Below are positions 34,167 to 53,704 of a DNA stretch of 64,000 bases, piece after piece. The stretch lies in contig CM126209.1 in the NCBI GenBank assembly GCA_052327205.1, positions 34,286,001-34,350,000 of the forward strand, written 5' to 3'. The stretch's first letter is position 1; every line of letters starts with the position of its first letter. The stretch is from Somniosus microcephalus. Lineage: Eukaryota. Position numbers and translations under genes: made by a program. The notes under the pieces are model-generated. The model was not told the origin of the DNA. It did no database searches and saw nothing but the letters and a program-made list of their open reading frames with translations.

Positions 34167-34250
34167 CTGGTTCTCGGAGGTATTCCCATCATCCCCTAGG
34201 AGCTCATTTCGAAGGTTTACCTCATCACTGTAGGCGATCCGTGACCTTTT
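34167..34250 (-). CDS. VTI1A: VTI1A internal coding exon (equivalent to human exon 4), 84 nt, KRSRIAYSDEVNLRNELLGDDGNTSENQ
   Basis: Minus strand reads ...ttttcctttcgtttccag|AAAAGGTCACGG...GAGAACCAG|gtaagg. The translation matches remembered mammalian VTI1A KRSRIAYSDEVRNELLGDDGNSSENQ apart from a 2-aa insertion (NL) and one S>T change. Phase 0/0. Confidence 0.97.
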
Positions 34251-45742: not shown

Positions 45743-45835
45743 GTGTAGTACCGCCAGGTAGCGCTCTAATAGGAATTACAATGTTCAATGATGAAACTGA
45801 CCGTCACTATTACTTGTCACGCCACTAGGTGGCTA
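45743..45835 (+). promoter_or_regulatory. Tandem CTCF-like motifs
   Basis: gtgtagta-CCGCCAGGTAGCGC (45751-45764) and CCACTAGGTGGC (45822-45833); matched by eye. Confidence 0.4.
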
Positions 45836-45849
45836 ATAGGAATTTCAAT

Positions 45850-46579
45850 GACCCTGAATTTGCGGTTAGGGGCTTCCCGCGGGGAAATGCCTCCGATCCG
45901 CAAATAAAATGCCTGCGTGCCTGGTGGTCCGGGGACTTGCGGTCCTGGACCTCTCCGGATACGTGCGGGAAGAGGCCTACGTAGCTCAGGGGTGCACGCG
46001 GTTCACAAGCGCCCCCTGGGATCACGTGGGCTGGCCCAATGAATGAAAGAAGGGGATCCCCATTCATAGTTATGGGGATTCCGTATGTATGGAAACCCCA
46101 GAAGTATGAATGGGAATATCCCAAAAAATACCTCTGCACTTCAATTTTTTTTAAAAAATCACATAATTAAAATGGCATTTAATTAGCCATTTAAAAGAAA
46201 AATTTAATTTTTTGAAAAATAAATGTTCATGTTTTAAAGGGGCTAAAACTAAACTTACCTTATTTCACAGGTTTTTAAAATGTTTAAATTATTGATAATT
46301 TTATTTTTCTGTTTTTTAAAACTCTTACACTGGTAAAAGCAGGCCTTACGCCCACTTTTACCAGGTGTAAGAATTTCACGGGCATTCGCTGGGTCCAACT
46401 CTCCGCCCGCGGATGCCCTTTTCCCGGGGCTGCATTGACTCCGTCAAGAAAATTCTTGACAGATCAGAAGTTCCGGGTTTTCGCCCATGCAGAGCGCATG
46501 CCTGAACCCGGAACTTGCACAGCCCCTATGGGCACGTGCGTACCTTGTACGCGCCCGCAGGGGCCGCAAATTATGGCCC
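45850..46579 (-). mobile_element. MITE related to the 27345/61958 family, reverse orientation
   Basis: Imperfect TIRs gaccctgaatttgcgg / ccgcaaattatggccc, flanks aat/att. Internal cccctgggatcacgtgggc and aaaagcaggcctt are reverse complements of family motifs. Confidence 0.78.
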
Positions 46580-47303
46580 ATTATTAATTTAATCACTGAC
46601 CTGTAATGGTTGTCTGCTTTCATCACAAAATGCTTTCTGAAAAAAATGTCATCCACCAATTTCTCTCATTTTTTAGACATTAGAAATTTCAAACAAAAAA
46701 ATTAAAAAATTACATATTTCACAACATGGTGAAATTTATCCACTGAATTGGCTTTTAATGCCTTTTAAAAAAAAAAAGTATTTTTACTTGAAGGCCTCAG
46801 TCTCTCCCACAAACTTGGGCTTGTACTTGATTGAGGTGCCCCTCTGGGGAAAAACTGTTCGCTCAATTGGAATTGTACAGTGTGTGCGCAGTGTACCCAA
46901 CTTCCCAGGATGCAGCAGTACCAGTCAGTCAGCTGAACTGATGGAATATTTGTTAACATCTGGCACGTTATGGTCATTTGTTTTTCCAAATTATTTGAAG
47001 AAAAGCTAGGGACAATTTTCAGAAGTTATAGTCAGATAAAACCTATATAGAGTGTTTTGAAAAGCAGAAACTGCGAGAGAGAGAGAATCAGAAATAATAC
47101 AAACAAAATGACTAAACTGATTACACAACTGTTTCGGTTTTGCTTTGTGTTCAACAAATTTCAGCAAGTGTATTAAGCAGAGAAGAGAACATCTTTTATC
47201 ATCCCAATTGGAATTCAGATTCTTTTAAAAGCTGAATTTTGAAGCAAACCGAAAACCTATAGTTGTGTGCTCTACAAACTTCAGAAAACATATTAAACAC
47301 GAT

Positions 47304-47994
47304 GGGGGAGAAATTGGGTGAGTAGCGCCACTTGTTAGCGCCTAAAGAGGCAGGCAGTGGCTGTAGCGTCACTGGCTGCGCCTCCCGCGATATTGAGTTG
47401 GGGCGATAATGGTGGTGTTAGCCTTTTGCGCTGCGCCGCCACCGATTACGTCATCGGTGTGCACAGCGCCCCATTCGCGATATTTGGTAGCGAACGGCGC
47501 CGTTCGCTACCTGCGCCCGGTTCACGGGGCCTTACTGTGCCGGCAGCAGTGCAAGTTAAGGTGGAGGTGCGGGGCGGCTGCCTTTTTCAGCGGCCGCCTG
47601 CCAGCACCTCCGTCCCCGGCCTCCTGACCACTCCCCCGCGGCATTGCCGGCTGTTTCCTGAGAGCCCGGCACTTCTCCTTGGTGCCGGGCTCATTTGCCG
47701 GCACTCGTGAGCGGGGATCGCGCTGTTGCAGGCACCTCCCCCTTAACAGTGGGAGGAAGGCCTGCAGTACCTCAGCGTGCCGTGCCGCAGCGTGTGGCGC
47801 TGCAGCACGTTGCGCTGCGATATTCAGTTTCAGCACCCTAAGAGGGACGCGGAGCGCCTCGAGCCTCGCCCCGTGTCCCTCGAGGGGCAATGAAACTGAA
47901 TATCTGACGATCGCTGAAGCCTCAAATGCAGCGCTAAATCCTGCGCTCAGGCGACTTTTGCGCCACTTTGACGCCCCAACCCAATTTCTAGGCC
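47304..47994. mobile_element. GC-rich MITE related to the 41677 element
   Basis: Ends gggggAGAAATTGGGT / ACCCAATTTCTaggcc; gttagcgcct.aagagg is shared with the 41677 element; internal hairpin gatattcagtttca...tgaaactgaatatc. No clear TSD. Confidence 0.72.
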
Positions 47995-48158
47995 GGAGAC
48001 TTTTTGCCGTCCAAATTGGAGTTCATTTTTCAGAAAAAGTTGCATTTTCAAGCAAGCAGAAAGTCTCACCTGTTTTTTGTTAATTTAGAAAATGTAAACA
48101 TGGTAATTATTGACACCTGGATGAGACGAACGGAGAGACAGACACAGAGAGAAGCAGA

Positions 48159-48250
48159 AATAACAACAGAAAATGCTGGAAAAACTCAGACCAGGCAACA
48201 TCCGTGGAGAGAGAAATAGAGTCAACATTTCAGGTCAAAACCCTTTGTCA
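48159..48250 (-). repeat. Left arm of a Penelope-type inverted repeat
   Basis: Reverse-complement match over ~90 bp, with few mismatches and one 3-nt indel, to 51329-51420. Confidence 0.8.
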
Positions 48251-48252
48251 AG

Positions 48253-51200
48253 ACATAGAAACATAGAAACATAGAGATAGGAACAGGAGTCGGCCATTCG
48301 GCCCTTCGAGCCTGCTCCGCCATTCAATGAGATCATGGCTGATCTTCGTCTGAGATCATAGCTGATCTTACCAGTTCAGTACCCCGTCCCCGCCTTTTCT
48401 CCGTAACCCTTAATCCCCTTAGCCTTCAGAAATATATCCAATTCTCTCTTGAAAATATTTATTGAATTAGCCTTCACAGCCCTCTGTGGCAGGGAATTCC
48501 ACAGGCTCACCACTCTTTGAGTGAAGAAATTCTTCCTCATCTCTGTTTTAAATGATTTGCCCGCTATTTTTAGACTGTGGCCCCTGGTTCTGTGCTCCCC
48601 TGCCATTGGAAACATTCTCTCTGAATTCAGCCTGTCCAGGCCTGCCATAATTTTATATGTTTCGATGAGATCCCCTCTCAATCTTCTAAACTCCAGTGAG
48701 TACAAGCCCAAACTATTCAATCTCTCCTCGTAGGTCATTCCCGCCATTCCAGGTATCAGCCTGGTGAATCGCCGCTGCACTCTTTCCATGGCAAGAACAT
48801 CCTTCCGCAGATGGGGCGACCAAAACTGTACACAATACTCCAGATGCGGTCTCACCAGCACCTTGTACAGCTGTAGTAAGGTATCCCTATTCCTATACTC
48901 GAACCCCCTTGATATGAAGGCCAACATACCATTTGCCTTCTTAATCGCCTGTTGCACCTGCATGCTCTCCTTCAGTGACTGGTGCACAAGAACACCCAGG
49001 TCCCTCTGCACTTCCCCATCTCCCAATCTATTGCCATTTAGATAATAATCCACCCTCCTGTTTTTACCCCCAAAGTGGATAACCTCGCATTTATCCACAT
49101 TATAGTGCATCTGCCACGTATCCGCCCATTCCCCCAACCTGTCCAAATCGCACTGTAGCCTCCTGACATCCTCATCAGAGCCCACCCCTCCTCCTAGTTT
49201 AGTGTCGTCAGCGAATTTGGAAATATTGCATCCAATTCCCTGATCCAGATCATTTATATATATTGTGAACAGCTGGGGTCCCAGGACAGATCCTTGCGGC
49301 ACCCCGCTGGTCACTGCCTGCCACTCCGAAAACGAGCCGTTTATTCCAACTCTCTGTTTTCTATCCGCCAGCCAGTTCTCTATCCACGTTAATACTTTGC
49401 CCCCAATCCCATGAGCCTTAATTTTGCATGATAATCTTTTGTGTGGAACCTTATCGAAGGCTTTCTGGAAGTCAAGGTACACCACATCCATTGGCTCTCC
49501 CCCATCTATTTTACCAGTTACTTCCTCAAAAAATTCCAGCAGATTAGTCAAACACGATTTACCCTTTGTAAATCCATGTTGACTCTGTCCGATCCTTTCC
49601 CCATTTGTCAAGTGCTCCGCTATTTTATCCTTAATAATGGACTCTAGCATTTTGCCCACAACCGATGTAAGGCTTACTGGTCTATAATTCCCTGCTTTCT
49701 CTCTACCCCCCTTTTTAAATATTGGGGTAACATTAGCTACCCTCCAATCCACGGGTACTGTTCCCGAGTCAATGGAGTTCCGGAAGATGATCCTTAGAGC
49801 ATCTGCTATCTCCAGGGCCACCTCCTTAAGTACCCTAGGATGTAGTTTATCAGGCCCCGGGGATTTGTCGGCCTTCAGTCCCCTCAACTTACCCAACACC
49901 ATATCCCTAGAGATACTAATTTCTGTCAGCTCCTCCCTCTCATTAGTCCCTATGTTTGTCGATATTCCTGGGAGGTTATTTGTGTCCTCCTTTGTGAATA
50001 CAGAACCAAAGTATGAGTTTAATTGGTCTGCCATTTCCTTATTCTCCATTATATATTCTCCCGAATCGGACTGCAAGGGACCGACTTGGGATTTTACCAG
50101 TCTTTTCCTCCTGATATACCGATAAAAGCTTTTGCAGTCTGTCTTTATGTTTGCTGCAAGTTTACTTTCGTATTCTATTTTCCCCTTCCTGATTAATCCC
50201 TTTGTCCTCTTTTGCTGTATCCTGTACTGCCCCCAATCTTCCGGTCTGGTGCTTTTTTTTGCCAGTTGATATGCCCTTTTTTTTGATTTTATGCTGTCCC
50301 TAATTTCCCTCGTTATCCACGGTTGAGTCACCTTTTTAGGTTTATTTTTATGCCAAACCGGTATAAACATGTTCTGGAATTCTTCCATTCTATCTTTGAA
50401 TGCTTGCCATTGTCTATCCACTGTCAATCCCCCCAGAAACACCACCCAATCAATCTTACCCAATTCCCGTCTCATACCCTCGTAATTCCCTTTATTTAAG
50501 TTCTGGACCTTAGTCTCTGATTCAATTTCCTCACTCTCCATCTCGACTGAGAGCTCGATCATATTATGATCGCTCTGACCCAAGGGGCCTCGTACAAGAA
50601 GATTGCTGATAAGTCCCTTCTCATTGCACAATACCCAGTCTAAAATGGCCTGATCTCGAGTCGGCTCCTCGACATATTGGTCCAGATAACCGTCCCGAAA
50701 ACATTCCAGGAATTCCTCCTCCTCAGAATTTTTACTAATTTGGGTAGTCCAATCAATATGTAAATTAAAGTCACCCATGATGACAGCTGTGCTCTTATCG
50801 CACGCTTCTCTAATTTCCCTTTTTATGCCTTCCCTCACCTCCATATTACTATTTGGAGGCCTATATATCACACCCACTAACGTTTTCCTCCCCTTGCTAT
50901 TTCTCATTTCTACCCATACAGATTCCGTTTCATCCGAGTTAATATCCTTCCTTTCCATTGCATTAATCCCCTCCTTTACCAGCAATGCTACCCCACCTCC
51001 CCTACCTTTTTGTCGATCCTTCCTAAATATTGTATATCCCTGGATGTTAAGTTCCCAGCCTTGCCCACCCTGCAGCCACGTTTCTGTAATCCCAATCAAA
51101 TCATACTTGTTTACCTCTATTTCCATAACTAATTCATCCACCTTGTTCCTAATGCTTCTAGCATTAAGATACAAAGCCTTCAGGCTTGCTTTTTTCACAC

Positions 51201-51332
51201 TCTCATTATGAATTAGTTTGGCCCTTTGTGTTTCTCTCCTTTGCTTATTGCTTCTCACCTTTCTACCATCTATTTCTAACTTCATATGACTTCCCTCTTT
51301 TCCACTACCTAGGTTCCCATCCCCCTGCCAAA
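48253..51332 (-). mobile_element. Young CR1 LINE, 5'-truncated just upstream of ORF2, with intact EN+RT
   Basis: Octamer tail (TTCTATGT)n at 48253-48274, CR1 3' UTR, uninterrupted ORF; the 5' junction falls at the WQGDGN linker. Confidence 0.96.
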
Positions 51333-51480
51333 GGGTTTCGACCTGAAACATTGACTCTATTTCTCTCTCCATGGATGTTGCCTGGCCTGCTGAGTTTTTC
51401 CAGCATTTTTTGTTGTTATTTCGGATTTCCAGCATCTGCAGTATTTTGCTATCGTACACAGAGAGAAGCAGAGTGTCCAT
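48376..51480 (-). CDS. CR1 ORF2 protein (APE endonuclease + reverse transcriptase), 1034-aa open frame; the first ~50 aa come from flanking non-CR1 DNA
   Basis: EN motifs LYLNARS, GITETW, GVIYRPP, MGDFN, SDH; RT motifs NYRPVSL, YLDFQKAFD, GVPQGSVLGP, FADD. No internal stops. Confidence 0.95.
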   Translation of the reverse strand: MDTLLLSVYDSKILQMLEIRNNNKKCWKNSAGQATSMEREIESMFQVETLWQGDGNLGSGKEGSHMKLEIDGRKVRSNKQRRETQRAKLIHNESVKKASLKALYLNARSIRNKVDELVMEIEVNKYDLIGITETWLQGGQGWELNIQGYTIFRKDRQKGRGGGVALLVKEGINAMERKDINSDETESVWVEMRNSKGRKTLVGVIYRPPNSNMEVREGIKREIREACDKSTAVIMGDFNLHIDWTTQISKNSEEEEFLECFRDGYLDQYVEEPTRDQAILDWVLCNEKGLISNLLVRGPLGQSDHNMIELSVEMESEEIESETKVQNLNKGNYEGMRRELGKIDWVVFLGGLTVDRQWQAFKDRMEEFQNMFIPVWHKNKPKKVTQPWITREIRDSIKSKKRAYQLAKKSTRPEDWGQYRIQQKRTKGLIRKGKIEYESKLAANIKTDCKSFYRYIRRKRLVKSQVGPLQSDSGEYIMENKEMADQLNSYFGSVFTKEDTNNLPGISTNIGTNEREELTEISISRDMVLGKLRGLKADKSPGPDKLHPRVLKEVALEIADALRIIFRNSIDSGTVPVDWRVANVTPIFKKGGREKAGNYRPVSLTSVVGKMLESIIKDKIAEHLTNGERIGQSQHGFTKGKSCLTNLLEFFEEVTGKIDGGEPMDVVYLDFQKAFDKVPHKRLSCKIKAHGIGGKVLTWIENWLADRKQRVGINGSFSEWQAVTSGVPQGSVLGPQLFTIYINDLDQGIGCNISKFADDTKLGGGVGSDEDVRRLQCDLDRLGEWADTWQMHYNVDKCEVIHFGGKNRRVDYYLNGNRLGDGEVQRDLGVLVHQSLKESMQVQQAIKKANGMLAFISRGFEYRNRDTLLQLYKVLVRPHLEYCVQFWSPHLRKDVLAMERVQRRFTRLIPGMAGMTYEERLNSLGLYSLEFRRLRGDLIETYKIMAGLDRLNSERMFPMAGEHRTRGHSLKIAGKSFKTEMRKNFFTQRVVSLWNSLPQRAVKANSINIFKRELDIFLKAKGIKGYGEKAGTGY
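51329..51455 (+). repeat. Right arm of the Penelope-type inverted repeat (pLTR-like, hammerhead remnant)
   Basis: aagggtttcgacctgaaacattgactct...cctgctgagtttttccagcat...tccagcatctgcagt, followed by the 17-bp TSD acacagagagaagcaga (51456-51472 = 48142-48158). Confidence 0.8.
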
Positions 51481-53704
51481 CTAAAAAACCATCAAGTTGA
51501 ATTTTGAAAGCAAACAAAGCCTCTGAGGGAACTGGATAGAAGGGGAGGGGAGGAGGTCTTTGACCACCCATCCTTGAGGCAGGGTGACGGGGACTGGATG
51601 GAGAGTTACCAGTAGGGTGAGCGACAGTGAAGTGAGGAAAAGGAGATAATTCAAAGGGGAAGAGGTAGCAATAGGAGTAAGTTGGGATAGTGAAGACTTT
51701 AGAAGTAGGGAATAAGGTAGTAGCAAAGAGAGAGGTTAAGAGACGCAATGGAAGCACAAGTAATGTGGGAAAGGGGATGGGAATAGAGTTGCTGAGACCG
51801 GCAGGCCACAATTTCCCTGCAAATTCCTCATATGTTCCTTTCCCCACCACGGCACCCACCTTCCATCTGAAAGAAAAGAAAAAGTCAAAGACAGAGAGAA
51901 AGAGAATGGAGAGAGAAGCAAACACAGGAGTTAGGGAGAGAGAGACAAACAGAAGCAGAAGAAGTGAGACAAAGATAGAAATAGCAATACAAAGACAGTG
52001 TCAGATAAGAAACCATATTTTCCAATTCATAATTTGCAACACCACGGGAGATCCATCAATATATTAAACGCTTTGTGTATAGTGCACAATTCCTGTACAG
52101 ACATCCTGCAACACTTTCCCCGTCAAGTTTTTGTTGATGTAGTCAAAGTAAAAGAGCACAAAATTAACACTGAAGAGGTAGGGAAGGTATGATCAAACAA
52201 AAAAAGTGACTAGAAAACTACCAGCGAGAAACTATAAAGGACTTAGGAAAGCGATCAATCCCAAATGACCAGTCAGAAGAACCTACAACTAAAAGAAAGG
52301 CAAACCAATCACATCCTTTTAGTAACTGAAGTATGTATGTAATCCCAAAAATAAAATATGTACTTTACAGTAACAATTACATTTACCACAGAACTCTGTT
52401 GAAGTCTTTTAATACCATCATTAAAAGTTTTTATTTAAAGGCCCCAAAAGCTGAGGCTTAAGACTGGATATTTTTGCCACAGAGCAGTTGAAGAAATTTG
52501 GCAACCATATCAGTGCAATATGTGCACGTGCTGTTTGCGGAATTTCCCAGCGTGCTACATTTTCCAGAGTAGGTTCTCTCTGGATTTTCAAACTATAAAG
52601 CTTTACCTCTTCATTCTGTGACAGAATTTCTATAATTTTTTTTTTTTGAAGTAATCTTTCACATTTAAATTATGAAAAACTTAATTTATACTTAAGAGGG
52701 CATGGGAGAGAGTGAGATAGATACAAGTCACAGATTTAATCATTTAATTGTGAAATATGCTTTTTTTTTCTATGTTAATTATGCTGGGAAGCTTACTCCT
52801 AAGGGTTTTTCTGCTTCAAAGACAAACTGAATTTCAAACCTTTCATTTTGAGCAGAAGAGGCTAATTATATCACCTGTGTTTTACAATATGCATTAAAGA
52901 AACTAATTACATCACCTGTGTTATCATTACTAAAACTGTTACATCTGCACATACTTCCTGTCTGCACCGCTTGATTTCCTGTTGTCACATTTTGTCACCC
53001 TTTTGTGTCAACATTTCCCGTATTATAATTTCCTATGTCCATATTTATAATGAATTTTGTCAATGTAAACTTGTCATGCTGTCATTACACAATCTAACCA
53101 CTTAGTTGTTTAGTGCCAAGTTTGTGAACATCCTCGAACAACTTCAGAAAAAATTCTAACCCTTTGGTCACCATCTTGGATGGTGCGGATAATTTTCATT
53201 TTCTTTGATGTAGGTTGATCCTTTTTAATATATATTTTATTTTAAAGTTTTGTTAAATTCTTTAGTCTATATATACTTGTAACCTTCAACCTGCAATCTC
53301 CCAGTTCAATGTAAAAGCTTTCCCCCCGCCCACCCCCATACAAGTATAGGTAATCTGCACTTTCCTATCTGCTTAACACTCAACTGTCGCCATGGGCTCA
53401 ACATCACTGTGGGTCAACATGCCACGTGTGTCCCACTAATGCGCCGCCTTCTCTGCAAGACAAAGGGCAACTTCTGCCGTTGAAGCCAGAACTCGTGCAA
53501 GCCCTGTTACTCTTTGTGTAAACAATGGCAATGTCAGAAGCATAATTCCTCCTCTCCTCCAAAAGAAAAACCATTTTGAACGAAAAGATGCATATGAAAG
53601 CCTTCACCACTCCTCCCCCAACTTAGCAGGATATTTAGAAGCAACCTTTTTACTAACCAAGATCACCAGTACCCCCCAACCCACTTATCAGTGCCACCCC
53701 CAAG

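Follow-up and report, generated by a model that had tools for sequence, protein, structure and literature searches.

Endonuclease-bearing (EN+) Penelope-like elements of the Penelope/Poseidon type encode a reverse transcriptase (RT) with a C-terminal GIY-YIG domain, carry a hammerhead motif in the pLTR and are accompanied by an inverted 5′-truncated copy, as described in parts of two reports (PMC8557442; PMC11167929). Parts of the same reports describe a 30-40-bp tail at one end only and attribute it to a pair of internal sites at which the RT can start (PMC8557442; PMC11167929). Canonical vertebrate CR1 LINEs, as covered in parts of three further reports, combine an esterase ORF1 and an APE-RT ORF2 with a 3′ hairpin, an octamer tail, 5′ truncation, 5′ microhomology and a very short target duplication (PMC4316615; PMC13343379; PMC4245944). 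Part of one of these reports records nested CR1 transposition-in-transposition in crocodilian genomes, at thousands of cases per genome (PMC4316615).

The window analyzed here, a stretch of 64,000 nucleotides from Somniosus microcephalus, contains a unit in which a 17-bp target-site duplication (TSD) encloses, in order, an inverted arm, a 5′-truncated CR1 whose EN-RT frame is open, and the other arm (Table 1). The CR1 is a copy from a very young subfamily; it occupies the seam where two Penelope-like arms meet head to head, within an intron of VTI1A, and it probably arrived there after the palindrome had formed, through target-primed reverse transcription of the ordinary kind with no particular targeting of the site. 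As in transposition-in-transposition, a younger element lies within an older one and the junctions are single-copy; the palindromic Penelope host and the central position of the insert set this case apart.

Table 1. Features of the nested insertion and its surroundings (positions in the window unless given otherwise).
Feature	Position	Strand	Remarks
Left TSD copy, from Penelope-like insertion	48142..48158	.	17-mer ACACAGAGAGAAGCAGA, identical to 51456-51472
Short (tail-less) arm, Penelope-like 3′ end/pLTR, 3′ end outward	48159..48254	-	Assigned by family comparison
CR1 3′ UTR, hairpin and (TTTCTATG)n octamer tail	48255..48375	-	TG/TGT microhomology to target at tail end
CR1 ORF2, own ATG 51285 to stop, 969 aa	48376..51285	-	APE endonuclease and reverse transcriptase
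CR1 5′ truncation point, just beyond ORF1 stop codon	51286..51332	-	ORF1 and promoter missing
Long arm, Penelope-like 3′ end with ~34-bp one-sided tail (about 51423-51455)	51329..51455	+	Antisense open in ORF2 frame
Right TSD copy	51456..51472	.	17-mer ACACAGAGAGAAGCAGA, same as 48142-48158
1034-aa open frame, from 8 flank codons through the TSD and the antisense arm into CR1	48376..51480	-	Predicted; chance N-terminal ORF2 extension
Upstream VTI1A exon	G000:C8:34382473-34382589	-	PDB 1vcs match; only exon matched to a database

The TSD reported in the preliminary description is identical at both sites, and the arms are inverted relative to each other, as stated there, aligning over 97 bp at 89.7% identity (blastn, one arm against the other). 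They are asymmetric, with the extra tail on the right arm only. Both arms had been said to end in aaccctttg at the CR1 junctions; on the left, 7 further nucleotides (tcaagac, 48248-48254) precede the CR1 tail. The inner end of the short arm is the mini-palindrome GTCTTGAC, which lies where a minimal hammerhead-like motif in the U3-A8 form has its 5′ edge. This arm carries one private 3-bp indel, and the 88-nt haplotype of the long arm has no second copy in the genome.

The arm family is abundant: its anchor sequence is matched exactly 6,841 times in the genome. Among 86 family loci taken in genome order, 31 are palindromes of the window type, head to head, tailed on one side and flanked by a TSD, and all 31, like the window copy, pair one long with one short end. 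Family palindrome TSDs measure 10-19 bp (mostly 13-15), with mismatches at 11 of 426 positions between paired copies. Insertions of this Penelope family normally take this form, and the repeats and the duplication therefore belong to Penelope. Indeed, the left and right flanks form a single old dispersed repeat, other copies of which pass from one flank to the other without any insert. The sequence ACACA at the start of the TSD was considered as the natural end of Penelope and rejected: continuing copies read TATCGTACTAG (L013, L010), and the ACACA-bearing copies had been chosen by likeness to the query.

In longer copies (L102, L103, L225) the arm follows a body that matches RVT_1 (E 1.7e-4) and GIY-YIG (E 1.5e-3) at scores falling short of the curated Pfam cut-offs; this body bears out the Penelope label given earlier. 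The family, as read from broken copies, shares with the Penelope/Poseidon type the RT followed by GIY-YIG, the one-end tail, and the inverted 5′-truncated copy that yields flanking inverted repeats. A candidate hammerhead motif in the pLTR may be a further likeness: the CUGACGA..GAAA core with short helices was seen by sequence, and core positions 3 and 8 covary (27 U-A, 20 C-G, 4 U-G and 2 C-A, with overlapping loci counted without de-duplication). An Rfam search of seven loci returned no hammerhead, only sub-threshold matches to miRNA-type hairpins and one other weak match, and the hammerhead-like folds scored no better than those of shuffled sequences. The window copy differs from the Penelope/Poseidon type in its short arms (~100-130 bp), in the CR1 occupying its seam, and in a 17-bp TSD at the long end of the family range.

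Turning to the insert, a domain search of the 1034-aa frame placed Exo_endo_phos at residues 106-305 (E 9.8e-11) and RVT_1 at residues 589-812 (E 2.4e-32). Upstream of the truncation point, 25 of 29 siblings run ...AACTAATTT/GGCAGG into an esterase ORF1, and the other four are truncated within 41 nt; in L069, a sibling 99.7% identical to the window copy, ORF1 matches Lipase_GDSL_2 (E 5.1e-13), and its absence from the window copy is due to truncation. The esterase ORF1, the octamer tail in place of poly(A) and a general likeness point to CR1 rather than L2 or Rex1, and the name given in the preliminary description fits on these grounds and on the EN-RT ORF2. The predicted 3′ hairpin (z -1.06) is by itself not significant. 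Compared with canonical vertebrate CR1 LINEs, this copy shares ORF2, the esterase ORF1 of its full-length siblings, the 3′ hairpin and octamer tail, 5′ truncation, 5′ microhomology and a very short target duplication; nothing substantive differs, the truncation having happened to spare all of ORF2. The CR1 had been thought to have no TSD of its own; a duplication of 0-2 nt (TG) is masked by microhomology at both ends, with 4 nt (TTTG, 51329-51332) shared between the CR1 5′ end and the right arm. Several truncated siblings, read by eye, likewise show short overlaps and no clear TSD. Missing ORF1 and a promoter, the copy was likely dead on arrival, as judged from its sequence. An open 983-codon frame is common to 19 of 20 siblings, and the intact frame of the window copy reflects youth, not selection.

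The ages of the two parts differ. The CR1 has 3 private changes over ~3,035 sites relative to the majority of 20 siblings and no decay at its 69 CpG sites, whereas decay has reached 5 of the 9 CpG sites in the arms (Fisher p 6e-6). The decay count leaves out site 11 (CA 36, TG 1), a subfamily variant. Once possible subfamily variants are dropped, 2 of 7 arm sites are decayed (p 0.007), and private events alone give p 0.006-0.04. Arm variants could also derive from diverged source copies instead of post-insertion mutation. The unique haplotype of the long arm and the mismatches between family TSD pairs also speak for older arms. Overall, the age of the arms appears to be roughly tenfold that of the CR1, and because they have diverged more, the Penelope-like insertion would have preceded the CR1. 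Removing the CR1 in silico restores a seam, GTCAAGAC/AAAGGG, that is present in the empty copies L023 and L046; the same geometry recurs in L030 and in three of the 31 genome-order palindromes (L193, L195, L235). The simpler of the two proposals in the preliminary description, a young CR1 within an older palindrome, is supported by the decayed arms, the near-identity of the CR1 to its siblings and these empty seams.

In the proposed sequence of events, a Penelope element would first prime cDNA from both nicked strands at two internal start sites, giving a short and a tailed arm joined at the GTCYTGAC mini-palindrome and leaving a 17-bp TSD; the structure of this product is observed, and the mechanism is what we infer from it. 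Much later, the CR1 endonuclease would nick the seam, the octamer tail would prime by pairing over 2-3 nt, and the TTTG microhomology would serve to join the truncated CR1 cDNA, leaving 0-2 nt duplicated.

The window CR1 lies within 1-2 nt of the seam. A second composite across a seam, L125, involves another CR1 subfamily and has a 15-bp TSD. At L037, the seam's own 11-bp duplication flanks a 513-bp filler, and at L046 a terminal-inverted-repeat element sits beside the seam.

Such positions raise the possibility that the CR1 came later but that palindrome seams are favored, either because a cruciform loop is nicked there, whether by a host nuclease or by the endonuclease itself, or because interrupted palindromes survive better. 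The window CR1 and L125 both straddle a seam, L037 and L046 have foreign inserts at or beside one (2 of 22 palindromes in a similarity-picked sample), and L229 has an insert ~20 nt away; by a hand estimate, seam-near inserts number ~2-3 in 53 palindromes against ~0.2-0.7 expected. Inserts in general may have a slight preference for seams. Against this, none of the 31 genome-order palindromes has a foreign insert at its seam, while colinear Penelope DNA holds 11 foreign inserts in 10 of the 86 loci, four of them CR1 (read by eye). Genome-wide, CR1-tail matches number 7 at the apex (5 independent), 9 in an in-arm window and 4 in the opposite orientation, with ~2.9 expected by chance; the in-arm control anchor was uncounted, so the apex and arm figures are not normalized. 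The probability of at least 5 apex matches under the chance rate is 0.18. Favored seams are therefore considered unlikely. The enrichment of CR1s at palindrome centers that had been put forward as support for targeting did not appear, and of the suggested structure-directed apex nicking with TTTG microhomology, the microhomology is present and the CR1 apex excess is lacking in both the genome-wide counts and the genome-order sample.

A one-step origin has also been considered, in which the Penelope RT copied the short arm, switched template to a CR1 RNA at its 3′ end and continued for 3 kb, and the product was joined to the tailed arm, a single TSD enclosing both. Template switching of this general kind underlies U6/L1-type chimeras, in which sequences of two RNAs lie inside one TSD; the window unit likewise has two sequences in one TSD, but its parts are of unequal age and its insert lies inside a structure of two arms. 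The single TSD, the exact seam position and the similar layout of L125 suit such capture, and so does the polarity of the top strand, on which the antisense arm is followed by antisense CR1 beginning at its tail, as expected of continuous cDNA synthesis. However, any CR1 at a palindrome center has this polarity relative to one arm, the age difference of the arms runs counter to joint synthesis, the junctions resemble those of CR1 siblings, and nine of the 11 CR1-in-Penelope cases resolved on both sides are colinear, in both orientations, away from seams. Capture at this locus is accordingly rated improbable, and it is just as doubtful that Penelope RT can fix a whole EN-RT ORF at a seam in one step, yielding cross-class PLE-LINE chimeras such as the window locus and L125. 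If true, capture would amount to template switching between retroelement classes and would expose how two Penelope cDNAs join. The searched literature, mostly open-access main texts, held no report of a PLE-CR1 chimera formed in one step or of CR1 targeting PLE palindromes in sharks.

A candidate allele empty of the whole unit, joining 48120 to 51494 in contigs of four public runs (88% likeness, single-copy depth in all four), was set aside, as both flanks belong to one old repeat and paralogues give the same geometry: in the assembly, L261 and L251 match on the left from 48086-48087 and on the right from 51493-51496, at 87-95% over short stretches. No joint from 48254 to 51329, which would mark the palindrome without CR1, occurs among the 15 joints listed of 262, and arm repeats would break such contigs. 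Likewise, no alternative haplotype of the left flank was found among 24 matches in the assembly.

The unit lies in a ~62-kb intron between the exon at G000:C8:34382473-34382589, the nearest one found upstream, and a downstream exon at 34167..34250 (minus strand), which was located by motif and which we take to be VTI1A-like; a third VTI1A-like exon lies at ~29425-29341 (minus strand). The upstream exon matches PDB 1vcs Vti1a (E 2.8e-13) on the minus strand, bearing out the earlier view that the arm-ORF2 frame lies in VTI1A sense. The right arm had also been described, correctly, as fused in frame with ORF2 and supplying extra ATGs (51480 to the native ATG is 65 codons); ORF2 nonetheless keeps its own start and has no need of the arm's. 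The EN-RT frame is open as claimed, and its start, the flanking ATG at 51480, lies outside the TSD that was said to enclose it. For the predicted fusion frame and its added ATGs, chance is the best reading: openness of the arm is a family property (21 of 28 arms), and the phase has a 1-in-3 likelihood of fitting.

Two further readings are very unlikely: that arm, CR1 and arm move together as a composite, and that the fusion of arm and ORF2 is functional and, driven by VTI1A, supplies ORF2 protein. The 1034-aa frame in VTI1A sense would suit either, and a weak phase-0 acceptor-like site, TTTTTTAG/ATG (51481/51480), would suit the phase-0 donor of the upstream exon. That site, however, has only 12 pyrimidines in 19 positions, family arms are commonly open antisense in one frame, and siblings are equally intact. 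Moreover, the 3′ and 5′ junctions each occur once genome-wide, and a spreading composite is therefore ruled against. The co-mobilized chimera entertained in the preliminary description thus fails on the multiple junction copies it had been expected to show, and the outcome, single-copy junctions without CR1 enrichment at palindrome centers, is the one-off nested insertion named there as the opposing case. The locus does not show a new composite element; a recent CR1 within a hairpin-shaped Penelope remnant is most likely ordinary nesting.

Judging from four of 86 sampled loci, CR1-in-Penelope nests probably number some hundreds in the Somniosus microcephalus genome, and the locus serves only as a relative-dating marker. 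Of more use are the by-products of the comparison, namely the uniform TSDs, the strict pairing of a short with a tailed arm, and the clustering of inner ends at the 5′ edge of the hammerhead-like motif. The pairing agrees with reports that the RT of the Anolis element Poseidon starts at two sites, and these features of the Penelope family could constrain models of second-strand synthesis.

The unit consists of a CR1 copy held between two Penelope-like 3' ends (arms), and its coordinates are collected in the table. The preliminary description had recognized a 17-bp repeat bracketing both arms and the CR1, and arms that are inverted copies of one another. Indeed, the two 17-mers are identical and the arms align in inverted orientation over 97 bp at 89.7% identity, with ~34 extra bases at the outer end of the right arm. 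The intact EN-RT ORF claimed there was likewise recovered as a minus-strand frame (51480..48376) of 1034 aa without a stop, in which both the endonuclease and RT domains were found; this frame spans the right arm, confirming its in-frame fusion with ORF2.

Features of the arm-CR1-arm unit in window coordinates
Feature	Position	Remark
Left 17-mer copy	48142-48158	matches right copy
Left arm	48159-48254	
CR1 tail and body	48255-51332	minus strand
Right arm	51329-51455	
Right 17-mer copy	51456-51472	same 17-mer as left

A minus-strand V-SNARE exon, 32 kb outside the window, was matched to Vti1a, and two further VTI1A-like exons, at about 34.2 and 29.4 kb, were located by motif. The unit therefore lies within an intron of VTI1A, ~62 kb long, and the CR1 has the sense orientation. 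Immediately 5' of the 1034-aa frame, at 51481|51480 (-), a weak acceptor-like sequence in phase 0, the phase of the upstream VTI1A donor, forms a candidate splice site. Elsewhere in the window, GC-rich non-coding elements with internal hairpins (47307-47993 and 45800-46580) recur at other loci; contigs of organism C match from 47994 onward and may thus lack the first of these elements.

Inverted repeats closed by a TSD are the usual footprint of this Penelope family, independent of CR1. An exact arm 20-mer occurs 6,841 times in whole-genome counts covering 6.45 Gb, in a genome with shark-like repeats. In longer copies the arm is located behind an RT and GIY-YIG body, whose Pfam matches are weak and under cut-off because family copies are broken. 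To avoid selection by likeness, loci were sampled in genome order, taking every one of the 86 that gave rise to the first 100 matches listed for C1. Head-to-head palindromes flanked by TSDs of 10-19 bp, in most cases 13-15 bp, were present at 31 of the 86 (30 over the script threshold, plus L193 added manually), and in every one of them one end was short and the other tailed. As the normal product of the family, the arms and TSD owe nothing to the CR1. The head-to-head structure is that described for EN+ PLEs (PMC8557442), in which two internal RT start sites account for the one-sided tail (PMC11167929).

The arm inner end appears to overlap a minimal hammerhead-like core, in which the pairing is either C3-G8 or U3-A8. 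These two core positions covary (27 U-A, 20 C-G and 6 mixed among fetched arms, loci not de-duplicated), as also reported for Schistosoma PLEs; Rfam detected no hammerhead in 7 arm loci. Such hammerheads have been reported in PLEs, including opposite-strand motifs 100-700 bp apart (PMC4209133). Inner ends of anchored arms (L157-L242) cluster, with 32/86 inside one 22-nt interval that lies at the motif's 5' edge and precedes the predicted cleavage site; this cluster may mark the RNA 5' end or an RT stall.

The CR1 itself belongs to a young subfamily. All 40 scored matches to its 5' 630 bases were full-length, and over this stretch the 29 sibling loci recovered show 2 differences from the window. 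Because 25 of these 29 continue well upstream into the esterase ORF1, the window copy is 5'-truncated just past the ORF1 stop, where TTTG is common to CR1 and arm. The same open 983-codon frame is carried by 19 of 20 siblings fetched whole (the best matches, biased toward young copies), and thus an intact ORF is the rule in the subfamily. Against the majority of these 20, the window copy differs at three sites, all G>A outside CpG (positions 204, 317 and 1839 counted from 51329 (-), sense strand), which could, at n=3 only, reflect cDNA deamination or RT error. The native ORF2 ATG (51285) is kept. Since 21 of 28 family arms, when read antisense, have one or more frames free of stops, an arm-ORF2 fusion requires just a 1-in-3 phase match. 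TSDs of the CR1 clade are short, near 3-5 bp (PMC4245944). The CR1 target duplication in the window is 0-2 nt, and several truncated siblings, read by eye, show comparably short overlaps. At another locus (L116:2013-2847), ~35-bp fragments of the CR1 3' UTR hairpin are repeated in tandem many times.

Deleting the CR1 in silico yields the seam GTCAAGAC|AAAGGG, present at L023 and L046, with the same geometry at L030, L193, L195 and L235. Judged by sequence divergence, the arms are probably about ten times older than the CR1: family TSD pairs differ at 11/426 positions, about 1.3% per copy vs 0.1% for the CR1, and CpGs are decayed at 5/9 arm sites vs 0/69 in the CR1 (p 6e-6; conservatively 2/7, p 0.007), although arm variants could derive from diverged source copies. 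The left arm has one private indel, and an 88-mer of the right arm occurs nowhere else in the genome. Contigs from four runs showed a joint that skips the entire unit, but this was rejected as an empty allele; both flanks are formed by one old repeat, whose paralogues explain it. No palindrome-only allele appeared among the 15 contig joints listed.

An earlier proposal of a young CR1 inserted into an older palindrome is supported by the divergence and the empty-type seams; its suggested apex nicking is not supported, there being no CR1 excess at the apex. Whole-genome pattern counts placed a CR1 tail after an arm near the apex 7 times, or 5 events once the three on C32, which stem from a single duplicated locus, are counted as one, vs 9 in an equal-width window inside the arm (anchor not counted, hence unnormalised) and 4 in opposite orientation. 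Chance predicts ~2.9 from 179,171 tail matches, giving probabilities of 0.18 for at least 5 and 0.03 for at least 7. Among these matches plus two loci found by similarity, 11 were resolved on both sides: nine are CR1s within colinear Penelope DNA and two (the window and L125) span a seam. At L003 and L062 a Penelope element seems to have entered a CR1 tail; 8 further loci are ambiguous. L125 (G000:C1:48182500-48186500, 1088-2181) is a second arm-CR1-arm composite inside a 15-bp TSD; its 0.9-kb CR1, which belongs to a different subfamily and is 81% identical to the window CR1, spans the seam, and its right arm lacks about 25 nt.

Nesting with a seam preference is unlikely. Inserts at or adjoining the seam at L037 and L046 (2/22 palindromes of similarity-picked sets), and one about 20 nt away at L229, may reflect a slight seam preference of inserts of any kind, but none of the 31 genome-order seams held a foreign insert, against 11 inserts, including 4 CR1, elsewhere in Penelope DNA of that sample. 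L037:985-1510 contains a 513-bp foreign filler flanked by an 11-bp seam duplication, and L046:826-1503 a GC-rich foreign element with terminal inverted repeats at the seam. At L102:1211-3004 (-), a 598-aa ORF that combines a gag-like part with an aspartyl protease continues in frame into a lysine-rich segment that we take, without a database match, to resemble the host gene RALBP1; it is possibly a captured or interrupted retrocopy.

The suggestion of a co-mobilised chimera failed: the tail junction occurs in the window only and the 5' junction once genome-wide. A mobile or functional composite is extremely improbable. One-step template-switch capture of the CR1 is also improbable, though less so, and no report of one-step PLE-CR1 chimeras was found in the literature searched. 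The presence of the CR1 in the palindrome is most likely chance nesting, in an order that we infer. Penelope would have inserted first, with each of the two strands serving as primer and the junction formed at the GTCYTGAC mini-palindrome, and CR1 second, by TPRT aided by microhomology on either side. Such nesting is an already known kind of event, and the window CR1 copy is promoterless and probably inert.
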